The notes under the pieces: model-generated
Told to the model about the DNA's origin: nothing
Database searches by the model: none
Seen by the model: only the letters and a program-made list of their open reading frames with translations
Program-made: the position numbers and the translations under genes
From: Deltaproteobacteria bacterium
GTDB lineage: Bacteria > Desulfobacterota > Deferrimicrobia > Deferrimicrobiales > Deferrimicrobiaceae
Length of the DNA stretch: 64,000 nucleotides
Reading direction: 5' to 3'
Assembly: GCA_021815305.1 (NCBI GenBank)
Contig: JAKAHC010000010.1
Span: 7,997 to 71,996 of the forward strand
Shown here: positions 33,834 through 50,429 of the stretch, one piece after another
How positions within the stretch are numbered: the first letter of the stretch is position 1
Layout: the number at the start of each line of letters is the position of its first letter

Positions 33834-36097
33834 CCAGGGAGACCCCGATGCGATTCACGGCCCTATTGACCGCCGCATTCCTTTTCCTGTGCGCCGCCGC
33901 GCATGCCGCCGATCCGCCGACCGTGCCGGAACCCCCGCCCGGAGCGGCGCAACCGGAAAACCTCCAGGCCGCCCCCGCGGTCCCGTCTCTTCCGGCCGTC
34001 CCCCCACCCGCGGCGGTTCCCCCGCCCGGGGCTGCGCCGCCGGAGCAGGCTCCTCCCGCCGCGGCCGCACCGCCGGTCCAGCCCCCTCCCGTCGCCGAAA
34101 CAAGGCCCGCGCCGCCGCCCGCGAAAGCCGCCGGGGCTTCGCCGGAAAAACCAGGCGCCTCCCCGGTCTATCTTTCGATGGACTTCACCGACGTCGAACT
34201 GCCGGTCCTCATCAAGTTCATGAGCGAGCAGACAAGGAAGAACTTCATCTTCGACGAAAGGGTCCAGGGGAAGATCACGATCATCTCCCCGCGGAAGGTG
34301 ACGGTGGACGAGGCGTACAACGTCTTCCTTTCCGTGCTGCAGGTCAAAGGGTTCACCACGGTGGAGCAGGGCAACACGATCAAGATCGTCGCCGCGCGGG
34401 AGGCCCGCCAGGACACGATCCCGACGGGGGAGACCCATGGGATGCCGGGGGCGGAGTTCATCACCCGCCTCATCCCCCTCCAGTACCTCGACAGCGCGGA
34501 GGTGGTTCCGCTGATCACCCCGCTGGTTTCCAAGGACGGCCTGGTGTCGGCGTTCGGTTCCTCCAACACCCTCCTCCTGATCGACTCGCGCTCCAACGTC
34601 GACCGGCTTTTCAAGATCCTCTCCGAGCTCGACGTGGAGGGAACACCGGGGAACCTCAAGGTCTTCCACCTCACGTACGCTTCCGCCGCCGACACGGCGA
34701 AGACGCTGGACAGCCTGTTCCAGGAATCCCCTTCCGCGACCCCGACCCGGGGCAGGCCCCGGGGCATTTCCCGGCGCCGCGGCGTTCAGACGAAATTCAT
34801 CCCCGAGGCGCGCACCAACAGCCTGATCGTGTTCGCCACGGAAGAGGTCCTCGGGGAAGTGGCGAACCTGGTGCAGCAGCTCGACGTCCCCGTCTCCGCC
34901 GGCGCGGGGAAGATCAACGTGTATTATCTGGAGAACGCGGACGCGGAAGAGGTGGCCAAGGTCCTCGCGTCCCTGTCCGAGAAGCGGCCGGGACAGCAGC
35001 CCACCCCCGTCGCGACCCCGGTGATGCCCGGCGCCCGGCAGCCGACCGTGAAAGACGTCCTTTCCGCGGAGCTCGAGGGCGGCGTGAAGGTCACGCCCGA
35101 CAAGGCGACCAACTCCCTCATCATCGTAGCCTCCCCGAACGACTACCAGACGCTCGTCGACGTCGTCAAAAAGCTCGACATCCGCCGCCGGCAGGTGTAC
35201 GTCCAGGCGGTGATCATGGAGGTCACGCTCAACAAGGAGCGGGACCTGGGCGCGGAGTTCCGCGGGGCGGTGCAGACCGGGGGCAGCAACGGCGCGGTCC
35301 TGAGCGGAACGAACTTCGGGTTCACCGGCGGAGTGAACGACCTGTTCACCGCGCTCGCGACCGGGAACCCCCTCGTCCTCTCGGGCACCGGCCTGATCGC
35401 CGGGGGGATCGCCGGGAACGTCACCCTGCCGAACGGGACGAAGATCCCCGCGGTCACCGCGATCCTGCGCGCCGCGCAGACGGCGAGCAACGTGAACATC
35501 CTTTCCTCCCCGCACCTGCTCACCCTCGACAACAAGGAGGCGGAGATCATCGTCGGCCAGAACGTCCCCTTCATCACGAGCCAGTCCAGGGACACCACGA
35601 ACCTCGCCAACGTCATCAACACCGTCGAGCGCAAGGACGTCGGCATCACCCTTCGCCTGACCCCGCACATCCACGAGAGCGACTTCGTGAGTCTCGAGCT
35701 CTACCAGGAGTCGTCCGCCATCGTCGGGGACACCCTCCTGAACACGAGCCAGGTGGGACCGACGACCACGAAACGGTCCGCCAAGACAAGCGTGCTCGTG
35801 AAAAACGGCGACACGGTGGTGTTGGGCGGCATGATGCAGGAGACCTACACGACCACGAACAGCCAGGTCCCGCTCCTTGGGGACATCCCGCTGCTCGGCA
35901 ACCTCTTCAAGTTCAAGTCCGTGCAGCGGCAGAAGACGAACCTGCTCATCCTGCTCACCCCGCAGATCATCCGGGAGCCGGGACAGATGGCGCCGACATC
36001 GCAGGAGCAGCAGAAAAAGATGACCGAAGATTTCAACCGGCAGAAAAAGGAGGTCGAGAGCACGTTCCCCGACCCGAACCCGGAAAGGAAGCCGTGA
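33830..36097 (+). CDS. gspD: Type II secretion secretin D
   Basis: N0 domain (MDFTDVELPVLIK), N domains, DIRRRQVYVQA, LSSPHLLTLDNKEA, PLLGDIPLLGNLFK. Confidence 0.95.
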   Translation: MTRETPMRFTALLTAAFLFLCAAAHAADPPTVPEPPPGAAQPENLQAAPAVPSLPAVPPPAAVPPPGAAPPEQAPPAAAAPPVQPPPVAETRPAPPPAKAAGASPEKPGASPVYLSMDFTDVELPVLIKFMSEQTRKNFIFDERVQGKITIISPRKVTVDEAYNVFLSVLQVKGFTTVEQGNTIKIVAAREARQDTIPTGETHGMPGAEFITRLIPLQYLDSAEVVPLITPLVSKDGLVSAFGSSNTLLLIDSRSNVDRLFKILSELDVEGTPGNLKVFHLTYASAADTAKTLDSLFQESPSATPTRGRPRGISRRRGVQTKFIPEARTNSLIVFATEEVLGEVANLVQQLDVPVSAGAGKINVYYLENADAEEVAKVLASLSEKRPGQQPTPVATPVMPGARQPTVKDVLSAELEGGVKVTPDKATNSLIIVASPNDYQTLVDVVKKLDIRRRQVYVQAVIMEVTLNKERDLGAEFRGAVQTGGSNGAVLSGTNFGFTGGVNDLFTALATGNPLVLSGTGLIAGGIAGNVTLPNGTKIPAVTAILRAAQTASNVNILSSPHLLTLDNKEAEIIVGQNVPFITSQSRDTTNLANVINTVERKDVGITLRLTPHIHESDFVSLELYQESSAIVGDTLLNTSQVGPTTTKRSAKTSVLVKNGDTVVLGGMMQETYTTTNSQVPLLGDIPLLGNLFKFKSVQRQKTNLLILLTPQIIREPGQMAPTSQEQQKKMTEDFNRQKKEVESTFPDPNPERKP

Positions 36098-36129
36098 CCG
36101 GGGCCTCGAAACCCCGGAAAGGGACGGAA

Positions 36130-37623
36130 ATGGCGGAGTTCATCCCGGAAACCTCTCTGGTCGGGAAGATCCCGATCACGTACGCCCGGAAGAACCTGCT
36201 CCTCCCCTGCCGTACGGCGTCCGGGGAACTGGTCCTGGTCTCGGGGAACCCCGGGGCCCGGGAGGCGATCGACGAGATGCGGTTCCTCGCCGGGCCCGCG
36301 CGGGTCGTCCCGGCGGCGGGCGAGGAGATCCTCCCCCTCATCGACGCGGCGTACGAGCGGGTCCAGGCCCCGGAGCGGGAGATCGCCGAGGGACTGTCGG
36401 GCGAGTGGGACATCGACGTGGCGGCCACCATCGAAGAGACCAAGGACCTCCTCGATTCCCCGGACGAGGCGCCGGTCATCCGGTTCGTCCACTCCGTCCT
36501 GTTCCGGGCGATCCGGGAGCGGTCCAGCGACATCCATTTCGAACCGTACGAGAAAGAGCTCGTCGTCCGCAACCGGGTGGACGGAATCCTCTACCCGATG
36601 GTCACCGCCCCCAGGAAGTGGCACGCCCCCGCGGTGTCCCGCGTCAAAGTCATGGCGGGCCTGGACATCGCGGAGCGCCGCCTGCCGCAGGACGGGAGGA
36701 TCCGGATCCGGCTCGGAGGGAAGGAGATCGACATCCGCGTCTCGACGGTCCCCACCTCGTTCGGAGAGCGGGCCGTGCTGCGCATCCTCGACCGCACCCA
36801 CATCCTCCTCGGACTGACCGACCTGGGGCTTGCCGACAGCGACCTGGCCTCCCTCGAGCGCTTTCTCGCCCGCTCGAACGGCATCCTCCTGGTCACGGGC
36901 CCGACGGGGTCCGGGAAGACCACCACCCTGTACGCGGCGCTGCGCCGCCTCGACTCCGGCACCAAGAACATCATCACCATCGAGGACCCGGTGGAGTACC
37001 AGATCCGCGGCATCGGACAGATCCAGGTCAACCCGAAGATCCAGTTGACCTTCGCCGGCGGCCTGCGATCGATCCTGCGGCAGGACCCCGACATCATCAT
37101 GGTGGGGGAAATCCGGGACGCGGAGACCGCCGAGATCGCGATCCAGGCCTCCCTCACCGGGCACCTCGTCCTCTCCACGCTGCACACCAACGACTCCGCA
37201 AGCGCCGTGACCCGGCTGGTCGACATGGGGATCGAACCGTTCCTCGTGGCGTCTTCCCTTTCGGGGGTGATCGCGCAGCGCCTCGTGCGCCGCCTCTGCC
37301 CCGAGTGCAAGGTCCCCTACGAGCCCGGCGCCGGGGAGTCCCGGAGCATCGGGCTCTCAGCCTCCCCATCGGTCCCCTTCTACCGCCCCGCGGGGTGCGC
37401 GAAGTGCCTCAACACGGGGTACGCCGGGCGTACGGGGCTCTACGAGATCCTGCCCGCCGACGAAGCGATCCGGTCGATGATCCTGACCCGCGCCGACGCG
37501 GACGGCATCCGTGCCCTCGCCGTCTCCCGCGGCATGCGGACGATCCTCGCCGCGGGCGCGGAGAAGGTGGCGGAGGGCGTAACCTCGGTGGAGGAGGTCC
37601 TCCGCGTAACGCAGGAGGATTAG
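36130..37623 (+). CDS. gspE: Type II secretion ATPase E
   Basis: GPTGSGKTTT Walker A, LRQDPDIIMVGEIRD, CPEC...CAKC zinc motif. An alternative GTG start exists at 36094. Confidence 0.95.
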   Translation: MAEFIPETSLVGKIPITYARKNLLLPCRTASGELVLVSGNPGAREAIDEMRFLAGPARVVPAAGEEILPLIDAAYERVQAPEREIAEGLSGEWDIDVAATIEETKDLLDSPDEAPVIRFVHSVLFRAIRERSSDIHFEPYEKELVVRNRVDGILYPMVTAPRKWHAPAVSRVKVMAGLDIAERRLPQDGRIRIRLGGKEIDIRVSTVPTSFGERAVLRILDRTHILLGLTDLGLADSDLASLERFLARSNGILLVTGPTGSGKTTTLYAALRRLDSGTKNIITIEDPVEYQIRGIGQIQVNPKIQLTFAGGLRSILRQDPDIIMVGEIRDAETAEIAIQASLTGHLVLSTLHTNDSASAVTRLVDMGIEPFLVASSLSGVIAQRLVRRLCPECKVPYEPGAGESRSIGLSASPSVPFYRPAGCAKCLNTGYAGRTGLYEILPADEAIRSMILTRADADGIRALAVSRGMRTILAAGAEKVAEGVTSVEEVLRVTQED

Positions 37624-37630
37624 GCGCTAC

Positions 37631-38836
37631 GTGCCGGTATATCGCTACAAGGGGATCACGCGGGCGGGCGAAAACCGGAAGGGAGCCCTGGAGGCGGAGA
37701 GCGTCGCCCTGGCCCGGAAGAAGCTCCACGAGGAGGGAGTGTTTCCCGAGACGCTCGTGGAGAGCGCCCGGGAAAGGAAAGGGATCGCCCTTCCCTCCCT
37801 GCTCGGACGAAAGGAGTTTCTCCCCCTCCTCACCCGTCAGCTCGCCACGCTCGTAGGGGCGGGCGTTCCGCTTGTCGGCGCCCTCCAGTCGGTGTCTTCG
37901 CAGGTGGACGACCCGGAGAGCCGCAAGATCCTCCAGAGCATCCAGAACACCGTGCGCGAGGGATCTTCCCTGGCGCGCGCCGTGGAGGCCCATCCCGCAA
38001 CGTTTCCCGACCTTTACGCAAGCATGGTGCGGGCCGGAGAGGAGAGCGGGACGCTTCCGCTGGCGCTTTCCCGGCTGGCGGACCACCTCGAAGAGCAGGC
38101 ACGGACCCGGAACCGGGTCCGTGCCGCGCTGACCTACCCCCTGCTGATGGCCGTGGTCGCATCCCTTGTGGTGGTGTTCCTGCTGACCTTCGTCGTGCCG
38201 AAAATCGTGGGGATCTTCTCCCACCTCGGCGCCGCCCTCCCCCTGCCGACGAGAATCCTCATCGCGGTGACCGACGTCCTCTCCGCGGGCTGGTGGGCGC
38301 TTTTGCTCCTCGCGGGAGCGCTGACGCTTCTGGCGCGGAAATACATAGCCACCGAACGCGGCCGCCGCGCCCGGGACGCCTTCCTGCTCCGCCTGCCCCT
38401 GGCGGGACGGCTTGCGCACCTGTCCGCGCTCTCCCGGTTCGCGCGCACCCTTTCCACGCTGGTCTCGGGAGGGATCCCGGTGGACCGGGCGCTGCGCATC
38501 GTCGCCCCGGTGGTCGGAAACGTGGTGATCGCGGAGGACATCTCCGCGGCCGCGGACCGCATCGTGGAAGGGTCCACCCTCTCGGACGCGCTAAAGCCTC
38601 ACCCCGAGGTTCCCCTCACCCTCGTCCAGATGGTGGCGGTGGGCGAGGAGAGCGGGGCGCTCGGAGAACTGCTGCTCCGGGCGGCCGACGCGATGGACGA
38701 GGAGACGGAGGCCCGCCTCTCCAGGCTTCTCTCCCTCCTCGAACCCATGATCATCCTGGTAATGGGAACGGTGGTCGCCTTCATCGTCGTCTCCGTCCTC
38801 TTGCCGCTGCTCAACATCTCACAGATCGTCCGATAG
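37631..38836 (+). CDS. gspF: Type II secretion platform protein F
   Basis: MVRAGEESGTL, LTYP, MVAVGEESG, LLEPMIIL. Confidence 0.95.
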   Translation: MPVYRYKGITRAGENRKGALEAESVALARKKLHEEGVFPETLVESARERKGIALPSLLGRKEFLPLLTRQLATLVGAGVPLVGALQSVSSQVDDPESRKILQSIQNTVREGSSLARAVEAHPATFPDLYASMVRAGEESGTLPLALSRLADHLEEQARTRNRVRAALTYPLLMAVVASLVVVFLLTFVVPKIVGIFSHLGAALPLPTRILIAVTDVLSAGWWALLLLAGALTLLARKYIATERGRRARDAFLLRLPLAGRLAHLSALSRFARTLSTLVSGGIPVDRALRIVAPVVGNVVIAEDISAAADRIVEGSTLSDALKPHPEVPLTLVQMVAVGEESGALGELLLRAADAMDEETEARLSRLLSLLEPMIILVMGTVVAFIVVSVLLPLLNISQIVR

Positions 38837-38846
38837 GAGGAACGCG

Positions 38847-39299
38847 ATGGATGGGAAAATCCCCGGGAAGAGGCTCCGCGGCAAGGGGGGCTTCACGCTC
38901 ATCGAAATCATGGTCGTCATCGTCATCCTGGGACTGCTCGCCGCGCTGGTGGTGCCCAAGCTGATCGGCCGCACGGAGGAAGCCAAGAAGACCCAGTCGC
39001 GCGTCCAGATCAAGCACCTGCAGCAGGCACTCGAGCTGTTCAAGCTGGACAACGGCTTCTTCCCGACGACCGACCAGGGTCTGGAAGCGCTGGTGCGCGT
39101 TCCCGAGGGGGGACGGGTCCCGAAGAACTACCGGAAGGGAGGCTACCTGGACCGCGTGCCGAAAGACCCGTGGGGAAATGCCTACGTCTACGTCTGCCCC
39201 GGGACGCACGGCGACTATGACATCAGCTCCTACGGCGCGGACAACGCGCCGGGAGGCGAAGGCGAGGATGCGGACATCAACTCGTGGGATGCGCAGTAA
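38847..39299 (+). CDS. gspG: Major pseudopilin G
   Basis: G|FTLIEIMVV cleavage site, FFPTTDQGLEALV, PKDPWGNAY. Confidence 0.96.
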   Translation: MDGKIPGKRLRGKGGFTLIEIMVVIVILGLLAALVVPKLIGRTEEAKKTQSRVQIKHLQQALELFKLDNGFFPTTDQGLEALVRVPEGGRVPKNYRKGGYLDRVPKDPWGNAYVYVCPGTHGDYDISSYGADNAPGGEGEDADINSWDAQ

Positions 39300-39783
39300 C
39301 CGCGGCTTCACGCTGATCGAGCTCGCCGTCGTACTGTTCGTGCTCGGGCTGATTCTCTGGATCGCGATCCCGCGTCTTTCCCGGATCGGCGACCCCGGCC
39401 GTGACGCCGTGTTCCGCGACCTCTCGGCGGAATCCGAGGCCGCGTACGACCTCTCCCTCTTCGAGAAGCGGGAAACCCGGCTGGTCCTCAACCCGGCGGC
39501 GGGAACCTACGAGTTCCGGTTGCCCGACCGCAACGCGGATGCGTCGCACCCGCGCGAGTTCGGCCCGAGGCTCACGGTGACCGGAATCCGCATCGAGGGG
39601 GAAGACCGGCCTCTGGACATCCCGACGGAGATCCGCTACCTCCCCGGCGGGCGGGTTCCCACGGCCTGGATCTACTTCCGGGATGCGGGCGACGAAGCGC
39701 ACCCCACCCGGTGGACCCTCCGGCTCAACCCGTTCAACGGCTCGATGAAGGTCACGGAAGGCACGGTGAGGGACAATGGCTGA
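39289..39783 (+). CDS. gspH: Minor pseudopilin H
   Basis: MRSNRG|FTLIEL prepilin motif; position after gspG. Confidence 0.8.
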   Translation: MRSNRGFTLIELAVVLFVLGLILWIAIPRLSRIGDPGRDAVFRDLSAESEAAYDLSLFEKRETRLVLNPAAGTYEFRLPDRNADASHPREFGPRLTVTGIRIEGEDRPLDIPTEIRYLPGGRVPTAWIYFRDAGDEAHPTRWTLRLNPFNGSMKVTEGTVRDNG

Positions 39784-40162
39784 CGGGGACACCTCGCGCG
39801 GAAATGGGGTGGGCAGGGGCGGGTTCACCCTCATCGAGGTGCTGGTCTCCCTCGCGATCCTGGCGGCCACGCTCCTCCTTGCCTACAGGATCATCGCGGG
39901 CGCGATCGCCGCGGAGGGACGGTCGGAGCACTGGACCGTCTGCTCCTATCTCGCGGAGGCCCTCGTCCGGGAAGCCACCGCCACCTTCCCCGACACCGGA
40001 GAGTCCGAAGGAAAGTTCGCCCCGCCGATGGACGCCTACTCGTGGAAGCGCACCGTCCGGGCGGCGGCGCACTCCGACGCCCGTGAAGTGGACGTCACCG
40101 TCACGTGGGGATCGGACAGCGGGGCGGAGCAGGTCACCCTATACGGGATTGCGGTGAAGTGA
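39776..40162 (+). CDS. gspI: Minor pseudopilin I
   Basis: GG|FTLIEVLVSLAIL; position in the operon. Confidence 0.8.
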   Translation: MADGDTSRGNGVGRGGFTLIEVLVSLAILAATLLLAYRIIAGAIAAEGRSEHWTVCSYLAEALVREATATFPDTGESEGKFAPPMDAYSWKRTVRAAAHSDAREVDVTVTWGSDSGAEQVTLYGIAVK

Positions 40163-40836
40163 TGCGGCCCGCGCGGCGTTACGGAGGGTTCACCCTCATC
40201 GAGATCCTCCTTGCGCTGGCGATCCTTGCGGTCGTCATGCTGCTTCTCCTGTCCGCCTTTACCGGCGCCGTGCGGGCGCGGGACATCCTCTTCGGGCGAT
40301 CCCGCGATTTCCGCCAGATCCGGCTCACGATGGACCGCATCGGCACCGACCTGCAGGACGCCTTCGCATCGTCGGTCCGCCAGGACTCCGGCCTCACCTG
40401 CCGGGAGGACCGGTTCTCGGGAAATCCCGCGGCGACGCTCGTATTCACCGCCTTCCAGCTTCCGGAAACGGACGGCCGCCGTCCCCCCGCGGACGTAGTC
40501 AAGATCAAGTACTACCCGAAGGTCGGCGCCGACGGTACCACGCTGGATCTTTACCGGGAGGAGTCCGACCTCCCCTTCATCGGCAACAAGATCCCCCTGC
40601 GGGAGGCGCTGGTCGCGGAGGGGCTCCGCGGTTTCCGCGTGGAACTGTACGACGGCTCCGCCTGGGTCAAGGAGTGGCCGTCGTCGGGAAAACCGGCAAC
40701 GTCCCTTCCGGCGAAGGCGGCCGTGACGCTTACCGACGGCAGCGGCAACACGTACCGGCGCGAGATCCCCATTCCCCTCTCCGGCCAGGAAGGGGTGCTG
40801 ACGTACTCCGGGCGGCGGCGCCCGTCCGGCCCATGA
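40162..40836 (+). CDS. gspJ: Minor pseudopilin J
   Basis: GG|FTLIEILLALAIL; YDGSAWVKEW near the C-terminus. Confidence 0.82.
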   Translation: MRPARRYGGFTLIEILLALAILAVVMLLLLSAFTGAVRARDILFGRSRDFRQIRLTMDRIGTDLQDAFASSVRQDSGLTCREDRFSGNPAATLVFTAFQLPETDGRRPPADVVKIKYYPKVGADGTTLDLYREESDLPFIGNKIPLREALVAEGLRGFRVELYDGSAWVKEWPSSGKPATSLPAKAAVTLTDGSGNTYRREIPIPLSGQEGVLTYSGRRRPSGP

Positions 40837-41789
40837 AGCGGCTTCGGGGGAACGAAGACGGAATCGCCCTGCTGGTCACCCTGCTCGTCCTCGTGCTGAT
40901 CGTAGCCCTCGCCAACGAGATCTTCCGGATCGGGGCGCGTGCGGCGCAGACCGGCGCCTACGGGCGGGACTCGATCGAATGCGGGCTTCTGGCGGAGGCG
41001 GGGACCGGGGCAGCACGGATCGCCCTCCGGCAGGACGCGCGGGAGAACAGCTACGATACGCTCGACGAGTTCTGGTCCCGGCCAGTGCCTCCCATCGAAC
41101 TGGGGAACGGCGTCATCAACGTCACCGTGGAGGACGAGGAGCGGAAGATCGACCTCAACCTGCTCGTGATGCCGAACGGGATCGCGCCGGACGAGCAGCG
41201 CCTCGCGATCTTCCGCCGCCTTCTCGACATCCTCGGGATCGACGGCGCGGTCGCGGACGCCGTAGTGGACTGGCTGGACGCGGACGACTCTCCGCGCGTC
41301 GGGGGCGCGGAGACCGCCTACTACCAGGGGCTTCCCTACCCCTACAGCGCGAAGAACGACCTGTTCGACACGGTGGACGAACTGCGGCTCGTGAAGGGGG
41401 TCACCGGCGAGGTTTTCGAGAAGCTGCGCCCCTTCGTCACCGTGTTCTCCTCCGCCAAGGTGAACATCAACACCGCGCCGAAGGAGGTCATCATGGCGCT
41501 GTCGGCCGGGTCGATCGCGGGGGCGGGGGAAATCGGTCCGGCCGAGGCGGACCAGCTCATCGCCTACCGGAGGGACCATCCCTTCAGGAGCGTCTCGGAC
41601 ATCAAGAACGTCTCCCCCTTCTTCGCGGACCTCTACGGCAAGACGCTCCTGCAGAATTACATCGACGTCCGCTCCACCGTTTTCCACGTGCGCTCGATCG
41701 GGACCGTCGCCGGGACGGCCCGCACGGTGGATGCCATCGGACTCCGTTCGGGAAATGAGATACAATGGCGTTTTTGGCGCCTGGAGTAG
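40833..41789 (+). CDS. gspK: Minor pseudopilin K
   Basis: DG|IALLVTLL, DEERKIDLN, DAVVDWLDAD, KVNINTAP. Confidence 0.9.
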   Translation: MKRLRGNEDGIALLVTLLVLVLIVALANEIFRIGARAAQTGAYGRDSIECGLLAEAGTGAARIALRQDARENSYDTLDEFWSRPVPPIELGNGVINVTVEDEERKIDLNLLVMPNGIAPDEQRLAIFRRLLDILGIDGAVADAVVDWLDADDSPRVGGAETAYYQGLPYPYSAKNDLFDTVDELRLVKGVTGEVFEKLRPFVTVFSSAKVNINTAPKEVIMALSAGSIAGAGEIGPAEADQLIAYRRDHPFRSVSDIKNVSPFFADLYGKTLLQNYIDVRSTVFHVRSIGTVAGTARTVDAIGLRSGNEIQWRFWRLE

Positions 41790-41817
41790 ACTACCCGCAG
41801 CAACGGGGGGAAACCGC

Positions 41818-43386
41818 ATGAACCTGTTCCGCCGAACCCGTTACCTTCTCGCACTCGCCGCCCTGCTTCTCTCCACGAGCGCGCGGGCCGAGCTAATCTT
41901 TCCCGTGAACGAGAGCGGGACCGGGGCGTTCACCTTCGACCAGCCGACGGGCGTCCTCGACGGGTCCACCGTGCACGTCGCCTTCATCGGGGATGCCGCG
42001 GGCACCGGACAGTTCTCGTTGTACTACGCGGCGATCAACGGCGCTGCCGATCTGACGAACCAGGCCACCACGCGGGCCCAGGTCCTCATCACCCCGGCCG
42101 TCGCCATCGACAACGGAGCCGCGTACACGGACGCGCGGCATCCGCGGGTCCAGCTCCTCGGCCCGGGCCAGGTCGTGATCGTGTTCCAGGCGATCCCGGC
42201 GGGCGCGACCGACTACAAGCTCTTCCTCGCCCTCGTGACGGTGGCAAACAACGCCGTCCAGACGCAGACGGTCCGCGAGATCACGGATCCCGTGACCGGG
42301 CGCATGGCCGGCAGGCTGATCGACCCGTCCTTCGGGCTGGTCGTGCCGGAACGCGCGGCCCGCGTCGCCTACACCGACAACACCGCCGGAAACGTCTACT
42401 GCGCCCGCATCGCGGTGGACAACGCGTCCCTGGTCGGCTCGCCCATCCTCCTCACGCCGACGGCGCAGACCCGGGGGATCACCCCTCTCCCCGGACTGGC
42501 CGTCGACAGCCAGAACCGCACCCACATCGCCTGGGCCGCCAACAACGCCCTGGGAACGCCTTCCGACATCTACTACGCCATGGTGCACGAAGCCGGCGCG
42601 ATCGACAACCTCGCCATCGGCGCCACCAGCATCCTCTACGGCGGTTTCCGGTGGGGATTCCCCAGCGTGCTCCTGCCGGCGAACAACGGCATCCCACGGA
42701 CCAACTCGGTCCTCGTCGTCGCCGCGGACGATCCGCTGGAAACCAGCGGCCTCGCGACGACGGTGGGGGTCGCCATGGTCGCCCCCGACGCGGTCACGCC
42801 GGACGGAAACCCCGTCGGCCCCGGGAACCTCATTTCCGGCCAGACGTTCCTCGTTTCCCCACCGGGAAGTTCGCCGCTGGCGGACACCTTTTCCGCCTAC
42901 CACCCCGGCGCGGCCATCGACAGTTCCAACCGCGTCCACGTTTCCGGCTACGGCTTCCTGGCCCCCGGCAACCTGGGGAGCGCCGGGTCGTACTACACGA
43001 TGGACCTGCTGGGGGTCACCACGGCACCGATCACCGGGTATCCGACGACCGAGGCGGTTCTGAGCTCCCCCCGGGAACCGGTGGGGACGGGCACCCTCGC
43101 TTACGCCACGACCCTCCCCGGCGACTACACCCGAACCGCCTTCGTGCACATGAACACGCGGGCGTTCCTGTTCTGGTCCGCTCAGGACAACGTCGTTTCC
43201 GGGGCGCACAACCTCTATGTCACCAGCGCCCTCTCCTCCACCGATCTGGTCGGCGCCAGCACCGGCTGCTCCACGGTCGCCGGCCCGGGGGAGAGGAACG
43301 GGGAGATCCCCTGGGCGGCCCTGCTGCTCCTTCCCGCGGTCCTGCTCCTGCTGCGGAGAGCCGCAAGGAAGGCCCTTGCCAGGTAG
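41818..43386 (+). CDS. Secreted hypothetical protein (beta-propeller-like) with a C-terminal Gly-Cys/TM/basic sorting tail
   Basis: Signal peptide (SARA|E), repeated HV/IAF/W...YYA motifs, tail STGCS...ALLLLPAVLLLLRRAARK. Confidence 0.8.
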   Translation: MNLFRRTRYLLALAALLLSTSARAELIFPVNESGTGAFTFDQPTGVLDGSTVHVAFIGDAAGTGQFSLYYAAINGAADLTNQATTRAQVLITPAVAIDNGAAYTDARHPRVQLLGPGQVVIVFQAIPAGATDYKLFLALVTVANNAVQTQTVREITDPVTGRMAGRLIDPSFGLVVPERAARVAYTDNTAGNVYCARIAVDNASLVGSPILLTPTAQTRGITPLPGLAVDSQNRTHIAWAANNALGTPSDIYYAMVHEAGAIDNLAIGATSILYGGFRWGFPSVLLPANNGIPRTNSVLVVAADDPLETSGLATTVGVAMVAPDAVTPDGNPVGPGNLISGQTFLVSPPGSSPLADTFSAYHPGAAIDSSNRVHVSGYGFLAPGNLGSAGSYYTMDLLGVTTAPITGYPTTEAVLSSPREPVGTGTLAYATTLPGDYTRTAFVHMNTRAFLFWSAQDNVVSGAHNLYVTSALSSTDLVGASTGCSTVAGPGERNGEIPWAALLLLPAVLLLLRRAARKALAR

Positions 43387-44230
43387 CGGGCGATCCAGGG
43401 GGCGCTTTGCGGGCACGGCGCTGGGCGCGGTTCTCTTCCTGGCCGCGTTCGGCCTTGCGGTGGCGATGACCCTTCCGGACGATTTCGTCCTGTCCATGGT
43501 CCGGCCCATCCTTCGTGCCGGTGGCGTCAACCTCACGGCCCGGAAAAGCCGCATCGCCTTCCCGCTCGGAGTGCGCCTGCAAGGGGTGTCCGTCGCCATC
43601 GCAGGGACCCCTCCGATCCATCTGGACGAGGCAACCGCATCGTGGGAGTGGACCGGGTTGTTCCGGTGGCTCCCGGCGCACCTGACCCTCGTGCGCGGGA
43701 ACGCCACGGCGGACTTCCGGTTTTCTCCCGCCTTCTGGCATCCGAGCCGGGGACGGGCGACCCTCACGGGAGTTTCCTCCAGGGATCTGCCGCTCCCGGT
43801 CTTTTCGGATTCCGGGGCGGGATTCTCGGTTCGGCGGGTCGATGCCCGCTGGAGGATGACCGGGGGAAAACTGGCTGCGGAGGGCTCCGGTACGTTCGAC
43901 TTCCTGCAGTTTCCGGTCCCCTCGCCGGATTCGCCGATCCGGGAAGCGCGCATCGACAACGTGGATCTTTCGTTCCTGGTCCGGGGGGACGCTTTGCACG
44001 TACCCCGCGTCCTGGGAACTTACGAGGGGTCCCGGGTAGACGGCACCGGAGAGATCACGCGGTTCCTCGTACCGCGGCAAGCCCTTGTCACGTTCCACCT
44101 CCGCGTGCAGAATCCCTTCGAGGGCCGGGTCGCCATGCTTTTCGACATGCTGGCGAAAAACGCAAAGAATGCTAATCTGAGGATTGTCGGTTCCCTGGCG
44201 GCGCCCAGGGCCGAATTCCAGTTCTTCTAA
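43376..44230 (+). CDS. gspN: Type II secretion protein N-like
   Basis: N-terminal TM then LPDD, beta-rich body, C-terminal NLRIVGSLAAP. TTG start overlaps the upstream stop. Confidence 0.7.
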   Translation: MPGSGRSRGRFAGTALGAVLFLAAFGLAVAMTLPDDFVLSMVRPILRAGGVNLTARKSRIAFPLGVRLQGVSVAIAGTPPIHLDEATASWEWTGLFRWLPAHLTLVRGNATADFRFSPAFWHPSRGRATLTGVSSRDLPLPVFSDSGAGFSVRRVDARWRMTGGKLAAEGSGTFDFLQFPVPSPDSPIREARIDNVDLSFLVRGDALHVPRVLGTYEGSRVDGTGEITRFLVPRQALVTFHLRVQNPFEGRVAMLFDMLAKNAKNANLRIVGSLAAPRAEFQFF

Positions 44231-44240
44231 GAAGAAGGAC

Positions 44241-45605
44241 ATGCCCACCGTCGGAATCTCCATATCACGGGAAGGATGGCACGCCGTCGTGCTGGACGGC
44301 CCCCCCGCCGCTCCCGTCGTGGCTGCCTCCGCCGCGGTGCCCTGCCGGGAACCGTTCGGGGGCACGGAGGAGGCGACGGCCCTCGCCGCCGAGCTCCGCC
44401 ACGCGTTCCCCGGGAACAACCTCCCCGGGGCGGTGATCACGCTTCCCCCCCCCCTCACCTACCTCCGGCCGGTGACGCTGCCGGTGCACGATCTCGCCAG
44501 GGCGCGCGCCATTCACCTGGCCGAGCTCGAGGGAAACCTCCCCATCGAGGACGACGAGATCCTTTCGGACCTCCTGCCCTCCGCTCCGGGGGCCCCGGGC
44601 ACCTTTCTCGCCGTGGCGGCGCGACGCTCCTTCGTGGAGAAAACCGTCGAGGCGTTCCTTGCTTCCGGCATCCGCGTGGACCGCGTCATCACCGACCACG
44701 TGTCGCTCCTGCTCCTGGCCGAGGGACGAATCCCCGAAGACGCTGTCCTTCTTTCGACATTCTCCGACATCCTCCTGCTGCGCACCTCCGGGGAGGGGGT
44801 GCGGGAGGCGCGGCAATTCCCCTCCGCGATGGCGGAGGACCCCGCCGAACTCCTCTCGGCGGTGCGGGAGGCTTCCCGGGAGAACGGAGACGTGACCGCG
44901 AAGACGTTTTCTTTCGGGTACCTTCCCCCGGCCCTTGCGGGCGGCCTGCCCGATGCCGCGGCCTGTGACCTTCCGGAAGGGTTTCCCCCTGCGCACCTGG
45001 CGGCCTGCGGCGCCGCGCTGGCGCCGCATTTTCCGAAAGTCGCAGGCGGGTTCTCGCTGCGCACCTCGATGGAAGCGGCGGCGGAGAAGGAACGGGAGGG
45101 ACGCAGGCGGTACATCGCGGCGATCGCAGCGGGCGTCGCCGCCCTTCTGGCGCTCGGGACCCTGCAATTCGCAAAATGGACGGAGGGCGAGAAGGTTGCG
45201 CGCGCACGTGCGCTGGTGCGGAAAGAGTTCGCGGAAGCCGCACCGGACATCCGCAACGTCGTGCAGGCGGGAGCCCAGATCCGGGCAAAGCTCGCATCCC
45301 TCCAGCGCCAGCAGAAGGAGTTGGGAACGGACGCGCCGCCGCCCGCCGACCTCCTGATGTGGGCCTCCCAGGCGCTTCCGCAGGGAGAAATCGCCGTGAG
45401 GGAAGTGCAGATCGAGGGGCCGCGCATGCGGCTCGCCGGAGAGACGAAGGACCCCAGGCTGGTGGATACGTATCGCGCCGGGCTGTCGGGAACGCTCGGT
45501 CCGGGATACGCCGTGACCGTCCAGGAGTCCGAAGGGAGCCCCCAGGGAACTTCCGTGCGCTTCACCATCCTCGTCGAACGGAAGGCGGAACCGCGTGTTT
45601 CGTGA
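44241..45605 (+). CDS. gspL: Type II secretion protein L-like (actin-like cytoplasmic domain, TM, periplasmic domain)
   Basis: VGISIS N-terminal strand, TFLAVAARR, a single TM near residue 300, position before gspM. Confidence 0.72.
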   Translation: MPTVGISISREGWHAVVLDGPPAAPVVAASAAVPCREPFGGTEEATALAAELRHAFPGNNLPGAVITLPPPLTYLRPVTLPVHDLARARAIHLAELEGNLPIEDDEILSDLLPSAPGAPGTFLAVAARRSFVEKTVEAFLASGIRVDRVITDHVSLLLLAEGRIPEDAVLLSTFSDILLLRTSGEGVREARQFPSAMAEDPAELLSAVREASRENGDVTAKTFSFGYLPPALAGGLPDAAACDLPEGFPPAHLAACGAALAPHFPKVAGGFSLRTSMEAAAEKEREGRRRYIAAIAAGVAALLALGTLQFAKWTEGEKVARARALVRKEFAEAAPDIRNVVQAGAQIRAKLASLQRQQKELGTDAPPPADLLMWASQALPQGEIAVREVQIEGPRMRLAGETKDPRLVDTYRAGLSGTLGPGYAVTVQESEGSPQGTSVRFTILVERKAEPRVS

Positions 45606-46128
45606 CAGGGAAAAAAGGGTCCTCGTCCTCGGGGGCGCGGCGGCGGCCGTCCTTTTGCTCCTCACGTTCGTGGTGTTCCCCGGCATCGCGCGCCTGAAAT
45701 CCCTCGGCCGCGCTTCGGCTGCAGCGGAAAGCGATCTCGCCGAGGTGCGCAGGGCGAAACCGGAGCTCGAGCGCCTCCAGCGCGACATCCGCCAGCGGGG
45801 AGGCGTCGTACTCGCGGCGGCCAACCGCAAGGAGTCTCCCCTCATCCGCCTCTCCTCCGCCCTGCAGGATGCGGGAATTCCCCAGTCGGCGTTCAGCGTC
45901 AAATCGAGCGGCGCGCGGGACGGCGAGTCGTTCCGCGAGGAGTCGTTCGACGTGAAGTTGGAGAACCTTACCTGTCTCGAAGCCGTCAAGGCGCTCCAAC
46001 AGCTGTCGGGAGGGGCGTTGCCGACCGTCGTCCGCTCCTCGCTCCTCAAGAGCCGCTACGACGACCCCCGGTACCTCGATGTCACCCTCCGTGTCGAATA
46101 CCTTACCCCCAAAACGCCGAAGTCGTAG
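45595..46128 (+). CDS. gspM: Type II secretion protein M-like
   Basis: DREKRVLVLGG followed by a TM and coiled coil; size and position fit. Confidence 0.72.
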   Translation: MFRDREKRVLVLGGAAAAVLLLLTFVVFPGIARLKSLGRASAAAESDLAEVRRAKPELERLQRDIRQRGGVVLAAANRKESPLIRLSSALQDAGIPQSAFSVKSSGARDGESFREESFDVKLENLTCLEAVKALQQLSGGALPTVVRSSLLKSRYDDPRYLDVTLRVEYLTPKTPKS

Positions 46129-46909
46129 GCCGGCGGTCCTTCCCGTCGTCCTTCTCCTCGCGGCGATCCTGAGCGCGACGGGGTGCCCTTCCGGGAGGCT
46201 CCCCCCGCTTCCCCCTGCTGACGAGGCGCTCCTCCGGGCCAAGTCGGACAAACCGGTTCGCGTGGCGGTCCAGGGCGGCGGCGACGAACCGTTCGCGGCG
46301 ATCGCCGTCTTCCGCGACGACGCGTTCCTCCACCATGCGGCAGCGCTCGAACAGGCATCCATCCCGATCCTGGACGAGTTCGGCAAGGCGGCGATCCTCC
46401 TCCTCTCCCCGGGGCGGGTCCTTCCGCTCCTTGGGGACCCTTCCCTCGCGCGGCTCGCCTGGTTCGGCCCCCAGGGGCTGCTGGCGCGCCTCGACCCTGC
46501 CCTGGAGATCGACCTCCTCTCGCGCTACGGGGCGGGATCCGAAGCGGAGAACACGCCGCTGCTCGTGCGCTTCCGGGACGTGCCGGGGAAAGCGGAGGAG
46601 CGGCACGTCGCCGCGTCGGGGTTCCGCATCGTCACGCGGGCCGGGCCGACCTGGGTCGTCTCCGGGCCCGTATCCGGCGTGCCGAAACTGCTTTCGAACG
46701 ACCGAATCGCTTACCTGGAGAAGGCGGAGACGGGGGGCAACGCTTCGCGGGAAGGCCTTACCAAGACCGCACCGGTGCCCCATGCGGAAACCGGCGGCGC
46801 GGCGCATGACAACGCAACGGCCCCCGCTCCCTCCTCCGGTGGGGAGAGGGCGGTTCCCATCGGGAAAAGACCGCCGTACAGGATCCGGACACCCGAGGAT
46901 CCCCGTTGA
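46079..46909 (+). CDS. Hypothetical lipoprotein with two repeats resembling peptidase propeptide (I9-like) domains
   Basis: LSATGC lipobox and an internal repeat around FRD motifs. Start uncertain. Confidence 0.6.
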   Translation: MSPSVSNTLPPKRRSRRPAVLPVVLLLAAILSATGCPSGRLPPLPPADEALLRAKSDKPVRVAVQGGGDEPFAAIAVFRDDAFLHHAAALEQASIPILDEFGKAAILLLSPGRVLPLLGDPSLARLAWFGPQGLLARLDPALEIDLLSRYGAGSEAENTPLLVRFRDVPGKAEERHVAASGFRIVTRAGPTWVVSGPVSGVPKLLSNDRIAYLEKAETGGNASREGLTKTAPVPHAETGGAAHDNATAPAPSSGGERAVPIGKRPPYRIRTPEDPR

Positions 46910-49047
46910 TATCCTGGCCCGCTTCCCGGTGGGTTGTCGCAATGGCCCTCCTGCTCGCCGGTTGCGGCGCCACGAACGCCTTCGCGCAAAGCGGCCCTGC
47001 TAACGCGGAAGGAATCGCGCACCGGGATGCGGTACCTTCCGCGTCGTTCCTCGCCTCTTTCGCGGGCCGCGCCGTCCGATCCCTGTCGCCGCGGACTTCC
47101 GCACCGGTTTCGCCGAGAGTCGTGCCGCTTCTCCGGGGCCCCGCACCCGTGGAGATCCCATCCGTGTTTCCGCAGTTTCCCACGGACGGTTTCGGCCCCA
47201 TTCCCGGCGCATTGCAGGTTTCCCCCTTGCCGCCGGAGCCCCTGGCCCCGACCCCCCGCGCGCCTTCGCTTCTCTCCTCGTTCATCGGGCTGGTGGACGA
47301 CCTGACGGTCGTCCCGCCGGACACGATGGGGGCGGCCGGCCCCAGCCACCTGGTGAGTTTCCTGAACTCGGAGGTCGGCTTTTTCACCAAGACGGGGACG
47401 CTTCTCAACCCAGGGGTTTCCCTTCGCGACTTCTGGCTTCCGCTGATCTCCGCCGGCAACCTTCCCGACAACTCGGTATCGCCGACCGTCTTCGATCCGA
47501 AGGTCCTCTACGACGCGGGGAGCGGCCGGTTCCTCGCGGTCACCCTCGACGGGAGCCTCCCGACGGACAACTCCTGGATCCTGATCGCCGTGTCGCGGTC
47601 CTCCGATCCCACTGCGGGTTGGAATACCTGGGCGATCGCCGCGGATCCCACGGGCGCCACCTGGGCGGATTATCCGGGACTGGGGGTCGACGACAACAAC
47701 GTCTACATCACGGCGAACCTGTTCGGCGCGGACAACGTGTTCCGGCAGGGAAAGATGTTGCGCATCCCGAAGGCGCAGTTGCTCCCCTCGCCGCAGGCGA
47801 CGACGCTTGCGTGGACGGAGTTCACGATCTCGCGTTTCAACCTCCAGCCCGCTTACACGTTCGGAAGCGCATCGCCGGAATATCTCGTCACGGAATCGAA
47901 CACCGTCATCGGCGGCAGCAGGTCCCTCGACGTGTACACGATCGGAGGGACACCGGCCGCGCTGGTACTCCTGGGTTCCGTCAACGTGGCACCGTACCCC
48001 GTCGTACAGTCCCTGCCGGTCGCGCCGCAGACCCGGATCGACACCGGCGATACCCGGATCCTCAACGCGGTCTTCCGGAACGGACACCTGTACGCCACGC
48101 ACACGGTGTCGGACAGCGCCAACACCCGGACCGAGGCGGCATGGTATGAAATCGTTCCCTCGTCCCCTCCCTCCCTGGTGCAGCAGGGAAGGGTATCCGA
48201 CCCGGCGCGGTTCTACTACTACCCCTCGATCGCGGTGAACGCGAACGGCGACATCGCGATCGGTTTCAGCGGGTCCTCCGCCACCGAATTCCCCGGCGGC
48301 TACTACACCGCGCGGTTTGCCTCCGATGCGGCGGGTTTCACCCAACCGGTGGGAGTGCTGAAAAGCGGTGAGGATGCGTACTCGAAACCCCTCCGCGGCA
48401 CCGACAGCCGGTGGGGGGACTTCAGCGCAACGGTGGTGGACCCGTCGGACGACCTCACCTTCTGGTCGATCCAGGAGTACGCCCGGGTCTCCTCTTCCAC
48501 GCCGGATCCGTCCAACCCTGGGCGATGGGGCACGTGGTGGGGGTCGTTCCGCCTCTCCGGCGTCGCCGCACCCGCAAACCTCGTCGCCACGGCGACGGGG
48601 CCTTTCGAAGTGCGGCTTACCTGGGTCCCCCAGTCGACGAACGAGACCGGGTTCCGGGTCGAGAGAAAGACCGGCGCCTCCGGCACGTACGAGGTGATCA
48701 CTTCCCCCCCGCTGCCGCCGGGCACTGCCTCGTACACCGACAATTCGGTGCTCTCCGGAACCACGTATTTCTACCGCGTGCAGTCGTTCAACGCGACCGG
48801 CAACGCTTACTCCGCCGAGGTTTCCGTAACGACCCCTTCTCCCTCTTCCGGAGGGGGCGGAGGATGCAACGCGGCCCCTCCGGACCGCTTTTCCGCCAAG
48901 GCAGGGGACATCGCATCCGCCCTCCTGTTGCCTGCGCTTCTGCTGCTTTTCGCCTCAAGCCGGCGTCACCTCCGATCCGCGAGGAAACCTTACTCCCCGG
49001 CATCCCGCTTGCTAGTCCGAAGGGAAATATCAGGAGGGAAGCCATGA
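46906..49047 (+). CDS. Secreted protein with an FN3 domain and a C-terminal GGGGC/TM/basic sorting tail
   Basis: Signal peptide, [14 protein letters not shown] motif, FN3 ([31 protein letters not shown]), tail SSGGGGGCN...[16 protein letters not shown]. Confidence 0.85.
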
Positions 49048-50429
49048 TCCAGGCCGATCCGGGGGCGAGGTTATCGGTATCCATATCGAACGGCATGAGC
49101 GTGGAAGTGCGCCTCGGGCTGCGCGAGGTCCGGATCGGGCGGAGCCGGGAAGCCGAGCTTCAACTGCCCGACCCTTCCGTCTCGAGGCTCCACGCCCGAA
49201 TCTTCCGGGTCGGAGCGCAATATTTTCTCGCTGATCTGGGCAGCCGCAACGGCACGCACGCAGGCGGGAAACGGGTGACGCAGCTTCCTCTCGAGGACGG
49301 CCAGACGTTTCACGTGGGTCCCTTCCAGATCCACTTCCACCGCGGCGCCCCCCTGCCTCCCTCCGGGGAAGAACCCACCATATCCCCTTCCGCGGGGGAC
49401 GGCGCGCCGTTCCGCACGTCCCGGCAAGAAGTCACCGGATGCGTTGTCCCGGCGCCATCCTCAAAAACCCGGCTTGCGCCGTACGGCCTCGTCGGAGAGA
49501 GCCACCCCATCCGAGGACTGGTCTCCACGATCCGCCGGGTGGCCGCCTCCGACGTCCCGGTCCTCATCGAGGGAGAAACGGGGTGCGGGAAAGAGCTCGT
49601 GGCGCGGGGGATCCACGACGCATCGGACCGCCGGGACCAGCCTTTCATCGTCGTCAACTGCGGGGCGATCTCCCCCGATCTGATCGAAAGCGAGCTGTTC
49701 GGGCATGAAAAGGGGGCGTTTACGGGGGCGACGGCGCAGCGTAAGGGAGCGTTCGAACTCGCACACAGAGGCACGATTTTCCTTGATGAAATCGGCGAGT
49801 TGCCCTTTCTTCTTCAACCGAAACTTTTACGTGTTCTCGAACAGAAGGAGGTCAAGCGGGTCGGGGGGAACGAGACGCTCACGGCGGACGTGCGGATTCT
49901 GGCCGCCACGAACCGGAACCTGAGGGAGGAGATCGGAAGGAAGGCGTTCCGCGAGGATCTCTACTACCGGGTCGGGGCCGTCACCGTCGAGATCCCTCCC
50001 CTGCGCAGCCGCCGCGAGGACATCGCTCCGATTACCCGCCACTTCCTTCGGGAGATGGCGGCACGGTCGCAGCGCCCCCTTCCGGAACTCACCCCGGAGG
50101 CGCTCGAACTTCTCGTCGCCTACGAGTGGCCGGGAAACGTCCGCGAACTGCGCAACGCCGTCCAGCGCGCCGTGGTGATGACGGACGGCGCGCGCTTTTC
50201 GGCGGACGATTTCTCTTTCCTTGTGAAAGACGCACCCGCCGGCCGGGAGCACGATTTCCCCCCGGGGCTCTCCCGGTGGGAACGGGCGGAGCGTGTGAAC
50301 CTCCTCGCCGAGCTCGCCCGTCAAGGGGGGAACAAGACGAGGACGGCCAAAGAGCTCGGGATCGCCAAGTCCACGCTGTTCGAGAAGCTGAAGAAGTACG
50401 CCATCAGCCCGGCTGATCCAGACCGGTAA
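49044..50429 (+). CDS. FHA-domain sigma54-dependent transcriptional activator (FHA-AAA+-Fis HTH)
   Basis: [18 protein letters not shown] (FHA), [46 protein letters not shown] 49044 with GGAGG RBS. Confidence 0.93.

Follow-up and report, generated by a model that had tools for sequence, protein, structure and literature searches.

A conserved Cys-containing C-terminal tail on proteins of a Deferrimicrobiaceae type II secretion operon and its candidate myxosortase-like protease

Four Cys-bearing tripartite C-terminal sorting signals, MYXO-, JDVT-, Synerg- and CGP-CTERM, have been described, and a CPBP protease, termed Mrt, has been predicted for each of them (Haft, bioRxiv 10.1101/2023.06.07.544157). 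In the same work, Synerg-CTERM was found to co-distribute with a divergent type II secretion system (T2SS), the transmembrane (TM) segment of MYXO-CTERM was described as free of Pro and charged residues, with a Cys motif that lies near the helix and often reads GCGC, and lineage-specific forms of this signal were noted to impair the performance of a single hidden Markov model (HMM). More recently, it was shown that MrtX cuts MYXO-CTERM in a Cys-dependent manner, also in E. coli, and that surface display of MYXO-CTERM proteins requires the T2SS; the order proposed is Sec export, Cys lipidation, MrtX cleavage and T2SS transport (Guo, Haft and Wall 2025, PMC11980579). The processing of Cys-CTERM signals is thus better defined than was assumed in the initial annotation of the locus described here, a 64,000-nucleotide stretch of Deferrimicrobiaceae DNA (contig C193:7997-71996, hereafter the window). 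It contains a T2SS operon that encodes two secreted proteins, referred to as cargo 1 and cargo 2, which share a Cys-containing C-terminal tail.

This tail is conserved and modular, is tied to the T2SS operon, and co-occurs with a myxosortase-like CPBP protease whose catalytic motifs are intact. Most probably, the tail represents an uncatalogued form, specific to this lineage, of the known MYXO-CTERM/myxosortase surface-anchoring pathway. As Mrt proteases had already been predicted and MrtX cleavage of MYXO-CTERM already demonstrated, the system is a variant of a known mechanism and not a new anchoring principle. No description of it was found in the searchable literature, and the Ca. Deferrimicrobium genome paper is silent on T2SS and protein sorting. 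In public annotations, the tail-bearing proteins and the protease are called "hypothetical" or carry only a generic family or domain name.

The Cys tail and its conservation

Both secreted proteins of the initial annotation, one between gspK and gspN and the other after gspM and a lipoprotein gene, were confirmed as open reading frames (ORFs). The cargos and their tails occupy the following positions in the window:

41818-43386, plus strand: cargo 1, 522 aa; signal peptide, beta-propeller of approx. 450 aa, disordered linker and Cys tail
43264-43383, plus strand: tail 1; G483-C484, spacer, AALLLLPAVLLLL helix and RRAARK
46906-49047, plus strand: cargo 2, 713 aa; N-terminal sequence of signal or lipoprotein type, beta-propeller resembling sialidases, FN3 domain and Cys tail
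48844-49044, plus strand: tail 2; GGGGG-C, 17-aa spacer, helix, RRHLRSARK and a 19-aa cytoplasmic extension

The tail common to both cargos consists of Gly-Cys, a spacer of 9-19 aa, a helix rich in Leu that contains a conserved Pro (LLLPA), and an Arg pair (RR). Cargo 1 begins with a Sec-type signal peptide (MNLFRRTRYLLALAALLLSTSARA, followed by E) and ends in ...STGCSTVAGPGERNGEIPWAALLLLPAVLLLLRRAARKALAR. The source is a 2.73-Mb metagenome-assembled genome (MAG; assembly G000; 79% complete, 4.7% contamination), the 22,010 stop-to-stop ORFs of which served as the background for tail searches. Proteins nearly identical to its cargos and protease are labelled at NCBI with names such as Candidatus Deferrimicrobium sp. 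and Candidatus Deferrimicrobiaceae bacterium. A leave-out profile, built from eight tails of other genomes and containing no tail of this assembly, picked five of these ORFs, including both window cargos (E = 2.9e-8 for cargo 1 and 1.8e-3 for cargo 2), and the next-best ORF had an E-value of 0.92. A heuristic scan and the tail HMM yielded the same five. The tail noticed initially is therefore real, and its presence on both cargos is more than chance.

The five tails are doubtful as five clients of one organism, since the MAG probably mixes related populations. Contigs C82, C129 and C205, all short, bear further diverged copies (second and third) of the cargo region of the operon: gspK, a cargo 1 copy and gspN on C82; a cargo 2 copy and then an FHA/sigma-54 activator on C129; and another cargo 2 copy on C205. 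The copies on C82 and C129 are similar to their counterparts in a genome of the same genus as the window (G136), and three copies of one rhomboid gene, nearly identical to each other, lie on C65, C148 and C298. Co-binning is suspected on these two grounds, and it makes copy numbers taken from this MAG unreliable.

In a search of 60 Deferrimicrobiaceae genomes with profile A1, an HMM built from 11 tails, matches were found in 57, among them 47 of the 48 high-quality genomes and 12 of the 13 genera, at one to five per genome; all genomes of the family compared in this study are MAGs and may be incomplete. In the window, A1 matches tail 2 at 48844-48984 (E = 1.4e-12). Hence, the scan of the proteome and of relatives suggested by the initial annotation shows that other proteins share the tail. 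In 46 cargo 1 orthologues, the bodies of which are approx. 50% identical, the residues G483, C484, P498, L503, P506, A507, R513 and R517 are invariant, and the Gly-Cys pair, with the helix and RR cluster behind it, is invariant in these as well as in 46 cargo 2 orthologues. Among the 120 homologues listed for each cargo, the tail is present in all 120 for cargo 1, with the Cys 29-30 residues ahead of the basic cluster in each, and in 93 (full-length scan) or 96 (scan of the C-terminal 90 aa) for cargo 2. Tail-less cargo 2 homologues belong to other lineages and carry dockerin, FG-GAP or PGF-like ends on the same body. The Pro in the helix is found in 120/120 cargo 1 tails and 82 of the 83 cargo 2 tails that could be parsed.

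Moreover, at least four kinds of body that do not resemble one another in sequence carry the tail: the cargo 1 type, the cargo 2 type (propeller-FN3), S8 subtilases (G068 and G103) and HAF-repeat proteins, a class of approx. 390 aa encoded away from the T2SS operon. The occurrence of the tail on such dissimilar bodies marks it as a portable module resembling a sorting signal, and its conservation across the family agrees with the lineage-specific Cys sorting signal that had been proposed. The bodies of cargo 1 and cargo 2, considered unrelated in the initial annotation, indeed show no sequence similarity (BLASTP E = 0.75), but AlphaFold2 predicts a sialidase-like beta-propeller for both, so that the statement holds for sequence and not for the predicted fold. 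The cargo 1 model (mean predicted local distance difference test score, pLDDT, 81.9) matches generic GH145, GH43 and sialidase propellers in Foldseek with TM-scores of 0.45-0.6. For cargo 2 (mean pLDDT 76.8; Pfam fn3, 24.1 bits), the top Foldseek match is the pseudaminidase 2w38. The two bodies are not regarded as remote homologues, given that hhalign returned only a 38-column local match with 62% probability, covering a single blade-like motif; nor is a specific or enzymatic function assigned from the fold, because the Foldseek matches are to generic propellers only.

The ends of some of these proteins have a further feature. Of the 120 cargo 2-type proteins, 55 end exactly in ...RHP(L/A/P/V)C, a cytoplasmic and conserved His-Pro-x-Cys placed after the RR cluster; the ending was also noted on C129 and C205. 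This ending is absent from the window's cargo 2 and from all cargo 1 proteins. The C-terminus of the G068 subtilase reads ...KRHHSC.

A candidate protease and its co-distribution with the tail

The absence of a sorting protease from the window, stated in the initial annotation, is borne out: a PF02517 (CPBP) search of the assembly detected no CPBP protease within the 64 kb. The sole PF02517 gene of the assembly lies on another contig (C221:5731-6333, minus strand), encodes a protein of approx. 200 aa and scores 58.9 bits (cut-off 22.4). It is probably the sorting protease for the tails. In NCBIfam, Mrt models make up all seven of its best-scoring matches, namely (bits/cut-off) MrtP 78.5/250, Mrt_core 77.7/100, MrtC 69.4/195, MrtS 55.4/130, MrtZ 53.1/325, MrtX 48.0/180 and MrtJ 44.5/75, and two non-Mrt CPBP models trail at 36.0 and 20.7 bits. 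The Mrt_core scores of the family members compared, 77.7 to 78.9 bits in G000, 78 bits in G068 and 82 bits in G103, all lie below the cut-off of 100. The CPBP motifs EExxxR, FxxxH and HxxxN are intact and invariant (E120, E121, R125, F147, H151, H187 and N191).

The clade of this enzyme is narrow, as only seven proteins among 1.84 billion cluster representatives match it at E <= 1e-30. Of its 115 nearest full-length representatives, 103 match Mrt_core and 107 match MrtP at E <= 1e-25, and no non-Mrt family was found among them. In a FastTree phylogeny, the CPBPs of Deferrimicrobiaceae group in one supported clade that sits on a long branch, and the enzyme of the class's other family is its sister. 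Judged by the PF02517 match, the motifs and the nearest relatives, the protein can be assigned to the Mrt-type CPBPs as a divergent branch of that family.

The search for a co-distributed intramembrane protease, proposed in the initial annotation, has thus led to a myxosortase-like CPBP that co-occurs with the tail. An orthologue is present in 56 of the 60 Deferrimicrobiaceae genomes. When the phylum was sampled evenly with 151 genomes (four Deferrimicrobiaceae and 147 others), both cargo 1 and the full-length CPBP orthologue (E < 1e-40) were confined to the four Deferrimicrobiaceae. Weaker CPBP homologues are present in 13 of the 147 genomes outside the family, and tail matches (E < 1e-3) in three of them (G033, G076 and G093), all within the 13 CPBP carriers; the hypergeometric probability of this distribution is 286/518,665 (p ~5e-4). 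The tails of these three genomes are alike (e.g., GFGCSTFGSGGGISRGTFMVNWVIYLLPLVGLLSRRLLRKKG), and the CPBPs of G033 and G093 exceed the Mrt_core cut-off with 123 and 125 bits. A further case is G178 (C8:29600-40000, L041), the T2SS locus of which has gspK, gspN and gspL followed by the activator and neither cargo gene. Searches of this MAG (88% complete) with profile A1 and for CPBP revealed no tail and no CPBP anywhere in the genome, an apparent natural co-loss of cargos, tail and protease. G181, examined as a CPBP-positive genome lacking the tail, was rejected as a counter-example because its contig breaks 376 nt after gspK.

The CPBPs of G150, G033 and G093 (L012, L018 and L019), which belong to other families of the same GTDB phylum, score 123-128 bits with Mrt_core, above its cut-off. 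As these proteins pass the cut-off, bona fide myxosortase-family enzymes exist outside Myxococcota and Bradymonadales.

The T2SS operon and the position of the cargo genes

The cargo genes belong to a single plus-strand operon (32931-49047), in which neighboring genes overlap or are separated by gaps of <60 nt. The gene order is gspC, D, E, F, G, H, I, J, K, cargo 1, gspN, gspL, gspM, lipoprotein, cargo 2. Apart from the cargos, its genes are as follows:

32931-33833, plus strand: gspC-like, first gene of the operon; ORF and translation show an N-terminal TM segment and, by eye, a PDZ-like C-terminal end; also upstream of gspD in G136
33830-36097, plus strand: gspD, secretin, from the translation; 64-67% identical to its syntenic counterparts of G136, G068 and G103
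36153-37623, plus strand: gspE, ATPase; TIGR02533, 676.8 bits (cut-off 630)
37631-38836, plus strand: gspF, platform protein; TIGR02120, 420.5 bits, just under the cut-off of 424, with a full-length alignment
38847-39299, plus strand: gspG, major pseudopilin; TIGR01710, 187.5 bits (cut-off 88.9)
39310-40836, plus strand: gspH, gspI and gspJ, minor pseudopilins; each of the three ORFs begins with a prepilin N-terminus of GFTLIE type, boundaries approximate
40833-41789, plus strand: gspK, minor pseudopilin; NF037980, 196.6 bits (cut-off 130); Pfam T2SSK_1st and T2SSK also match
43376-44230, plus strand: gspN, with a TTG start; TIGR04411, 32.8 bits, under the cut-off of 50, model positions 9-278 of 280 aligned
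44241-45605, plus strand: gspL; weak TIGR01709 match (24.4 bits) over most of the length and weak Pfam GspL_C match; syntenic in relatives
45595-46128, plus strand: gspM; Pfam T2SSM, 19.7 bits, and weak NF040576 match; syntenic in relatives
46079-46909, plus strand: conserved lipoprotein; lipobox ...LSATG-C in the translation

The stop codon of cargo 1 had been placed on the TTG start of gspN. The two ORFs do overlap, by 11 nt, but the stop (TAG, 43384-43386) does not lie on the start codon (43376-43378). The order gspK, cargo 1, gspN, gspL, gspM, lipoprotein, tail-bearing cargo and FHA/sigma-54 activator is kept in G136, G068 and G103, the three genomes examined for layout, each of which stands for a genus. 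The cargo 2 slot at the end of the operon holds an S8 subtilase in G068 and G103, and the tail of this protein is of the same kind. Two tail-bearing genes thus occupy fixed slots of the operon in the four genera examined, in keeping with the earlier suggestion that the substrates are tied to this T2SS. Compared with G136, cargo 1 and cargo 2 are 50% and 44% identical, the lipoprotein 55%, and the other operon genes 62-83%. The two cargos have diverged more than any other gene of the operon, as surface-exposed proteins typically do, and this fits a predicted surface exposure.

The lipoprotein has lipobox-containing orthologues in the same slot, after gspM and before the terminal cargo, in each of the four genera, and a search of Pfam and NCBIfam gave no family match for it; it is possibly a pilotin-like T2SS accessory protein. 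Directly after the terminal cargo, again in all four genera, lies a gene for an FHA-AAA+-HTH sigma-54 activator (49090-50429 in the window), which may regulate the T2SS operon as well as the downstream pilus locus.

Relation to described sorting systems and the proposed pathway

The initial annotation regarded a match to an existing CTERM family as speaking against its proposal, and the comparison gave a marginal match, confined to tail 1. TIGR03901.2 (MYXO-CTERM, cut-off 20) gives 21.3 bits for the isolated tail 1, 20.1 bits for the same tail in a six-frame search and 16.8 bits for the C82 tail, and does not match full-length cargo 1, tail 2 or the C129 and C205 tails. The full-length cargo proteins are matched by no curated CTERM model, no JDVT, Synerg, GlyGly or PEP model attains its cut-off on the tails, and tail 2 is matched by none of the curated CTERM models at cut-off.

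The closest likeness is to the MYXO-CTERM/myxosortase systems of Myxococcota and Bradymonadales (MrtX, MrtC and MrtP; TIGR03901, NF040914). In both, the tail is tripartite and combines an invariant Cys with a helix and a cluster of Arg residues, the protease is a CPBP glutamic intramembrane protease from the Mrt lineage, the system is linked to the T2SS, and subtilases and adhesin-like propellers are among the clients. In contrast to MYXO-CTERM, the tails described here have a single Cys and no GCGC, a spacer of 9-19 aa that is often charged, and a Pro within the helix; there are only one to five clients per genome, some of them encoded inside the T2SS operon; the host family is Deferrimicrobiaceae; and the protease, of approx. 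200 aa, has no extra N-terminal domain and reaches 78 bits with Mrt_core instead of 100. MYXO-CTERM is delimited by a Pro-free helix, a Cys close to the helix and an Mrt_core score of >=100 bits, and none of the three is found here.

Synerg-CTERM/MrtS (TIGR04564, NF040589) shares with the present system a Gly/Ser-rich stretch that closes with a single Cys, a Leu-rich helix containing an invariant Pro, and a divergent T2SS with hard-to-recognize GspL, GspM and GspN. However, it has no spacer between Cys and helix and comes from a different phylum; TIGR04564 gives no match to the tails even at E <= 10, and MrtS scores 55.4 bits on the CPBP against a cut-off of 130. A single Cys, a Leu-rich helix, few clients and a short, minimal CPBP are also features of JDVT-CTERM/MrtJ (NF033191, NF033192), which differs in having a DP motif inside the helix, nine residues past the Cys, and a protease gene adjoining that of the client. 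Here, the protease gene lies on another contig, and NF033191 gives 8.4 bits on tail 2 (cut-off 27) and none on tail 1. GlyGly-CTERM/rhombosortase (Vibrio VesB) likewise marks surface proteins that depend on the T2SS with a tripartite tag at the C-terminus, and the Gly run of tail 2 is reminiscent of it, but the signature here is Cys-based, and GlyGly-CTERM (TIGR03501) matches none of the tails even at E <= 10. The system therefore combines Synerg-like features (Pro in a Leu-rich helix, divergent T2SS) with an enzyme of MYXO-like lineage and a JDVT-like low number of clients; it resembles the Cys-CTERM/Mrt/T2SS pathways but, the borderline MYXO-CTERM score of tail 1 aside, falls outside each named family by that family's own membership tests.

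A myxosortase-type pathway, with the C221 CPBP as the tail-cutting enzyme and the surrounding T2SS as the exporter, is the preferred reading, with an estimated probability of approx. 0.72. By analogy with MrtX and TraA of M. xanthus, and with Rce1 as a precedent, the precursor would be exported by Sec and retained in the inner membrane by the C-terminal helix and the RR cluster. The invariant Cys would then be lipid-modified, and the helix would be removed at a putative cleavage site by the approx. 200-aa CPBP glutamic intramembrane protease (C221:5731-6333, minus strand), the presumed partner of the tail. Finally, the lipid-anchored beta-propellers would be moved to the cell surface in a T2SS-dependent manner, by the system encoded around the cargo genes.

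Several observations weigh against this pathway. No curated Mrt model attains its cut-off on the C221 CPBP, the gene of which is unlinked to any tail-bearing gene and is flanked by genes of housekeeping type (identified by eye, from the translations, as a HAD-type phosphatase and a DNA ligase). Of the assembly's five tails, only one attains the MYXO-CTERM cut-off, and barely, and the Cys lies 9-19 residues from the helix, farther than in described Cys-CTERM signals, so that the cleavage geometry may differ. Co-occurrence of tail and CPBP within the family is confounded by shared ancestry and uninformative as evidence, both traits being nearly universal (57/60 and 56/60). Two genomes, G154 and G159, have tails and no detected CPBP, which might reflect incompleteness of these MAGs, and four genomes of genus g48 have Mrt_core-positive CPBPs and no A1 tail match. 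Moreover, the lineage is uncultured, and the pathway is a prediction from genome sequences.

It is unlikely that the tails are ordinary MYXO-CTERM signals, which would make the system a MYXO-CTERM/myxosortase family member that lacks annotation but has no distinct features. Tail 1 does cross the TIGR03901.2 cut-off, Mrt_core and MrtP are the best matches of the protease, and lineage-specific forms are known to degrade a single HMM (Haft, bioRxiv 10.1101/2023.06.07.544157), but the other four tails of the assembly score under the cut-off or not at all. The conserved Pro in the helix, the long charged spacer and the single Cys without GCGC also set the tails apart, as do an enzyme that forms its own clade on a long branch and scores 77.7 bits with Mrt_core against 100, and a host taxon outside Myxococcota and Bradymonadales. 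It is very unlikely that the tails are plain, uncleaved membrane anchors and the cargos periplasm-facing accessory proteins of the T2SS that stay in the inner membrane. The fixed position of cargo 1 between gspK and gspN and its translational coupling to gspN would suit such a role, and cleavage of these tails is itself a prediction. However, a plain anchor needs no invariant Gly-Cys at a fixed distance, the same tail is found on subtilases and on HAF-repeat proteins encoded elsewhere, G178 retains T2SS genes without cargo 1, and the cargo genes are the fastest-evolving of the operon (44-50% identity versus 62-83%, setting aside the lipoprotein at 55%).

A sorting signal cut by some other enzyme (an exosortase, a rhomboid or a protease of another kind), with the CPBP as an unrelated housekeeping protein, is also highly improbable. 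The unlinked position of the CPBP gene relative to the cargo genes would be accounted for, and other candidate enzymes are at hand, since the assembly has a PEP-CTERM tail with its exosortase system and a rhomboid protease. However, the tails lack the PEP motif and give no PEP-CTERM (TIGR02595) or GlyGly-CTERM match at E <= 10. No rhombosortase was found in the assembly: the only type of rhomboid present is extended at the N-terminus by a Cys-rich segment that, by eye, resembles a zinc ribbon, and it has no NCBIfam match, rhombosortase included, at E <= 1e-3, for which reasons it was rejected as the tail enzyme. Moreover, each of the four Cys-CTERM signals described has a CPBP enzyme as its partner, and outside the family tail matches are confined to genomes with a CPBP homologue.

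The myxosortase-type pathway might be extended further, though the extension is distinctly doubtful. The T2SS would be a dedicated surface-display machine onto which cargo 1, a rapidly diverging and lipid-anchored beta-propeller with a role beyond that of a passenger, is loaded via the pseudopilus tip, as in the case of PilY1 and minor pilins, to serve as a polymorphic receptor like TraA, and the RHP(L/A)C end of cargo 2-type proteins would be a second signal for recognition or acylation.

If the preferred reading is right, the myxosortase pathway, comprising Cys tags, a CPBP protease and T2SS display, extends to Deferrimicrobiaceae in a form in which both the tail and the protease clade escape current curated models. 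The two clients in the secretion operon provide an independent, genomic line of evidence that Cys tags and the T2SS are linked. A system this small (a protease of approx. 200 aa and two to five clients) suits heterologous reconstitution, which could bear on the identity of the Cys-lipidating enzyme and on the way in which the T2SS recognizes such clients. The tail profile is directly usable for better annotation.

Two minor observations concern other sorting signals. A 239-aa protein on C69 (G000:C69:216-935, minus strand) carries a classical PEP-CTERM tail (VPEPGTLGLLGLGLVGMSFISRRR); the organism thus runs an exosortase system beside the Cys-tail system, and a six-frame TIGR03901 match on this contig was a false lead, the protein being PEP-CTERM. 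In G093 (C51:10100-10500, L023) and G033 (C1:1994900-1995300, L024), Cys tails of the form GGGGCS...LLPLL...RFRR and GCGC...LLLPLFFLFLRRR are followed in the same frame, with no stop, by an apparent new signal peptide within ORFs of 2900 and 1193 aa, an arrangement of an internal sorting tag like that of MXAN_5598 (PMC11980579).

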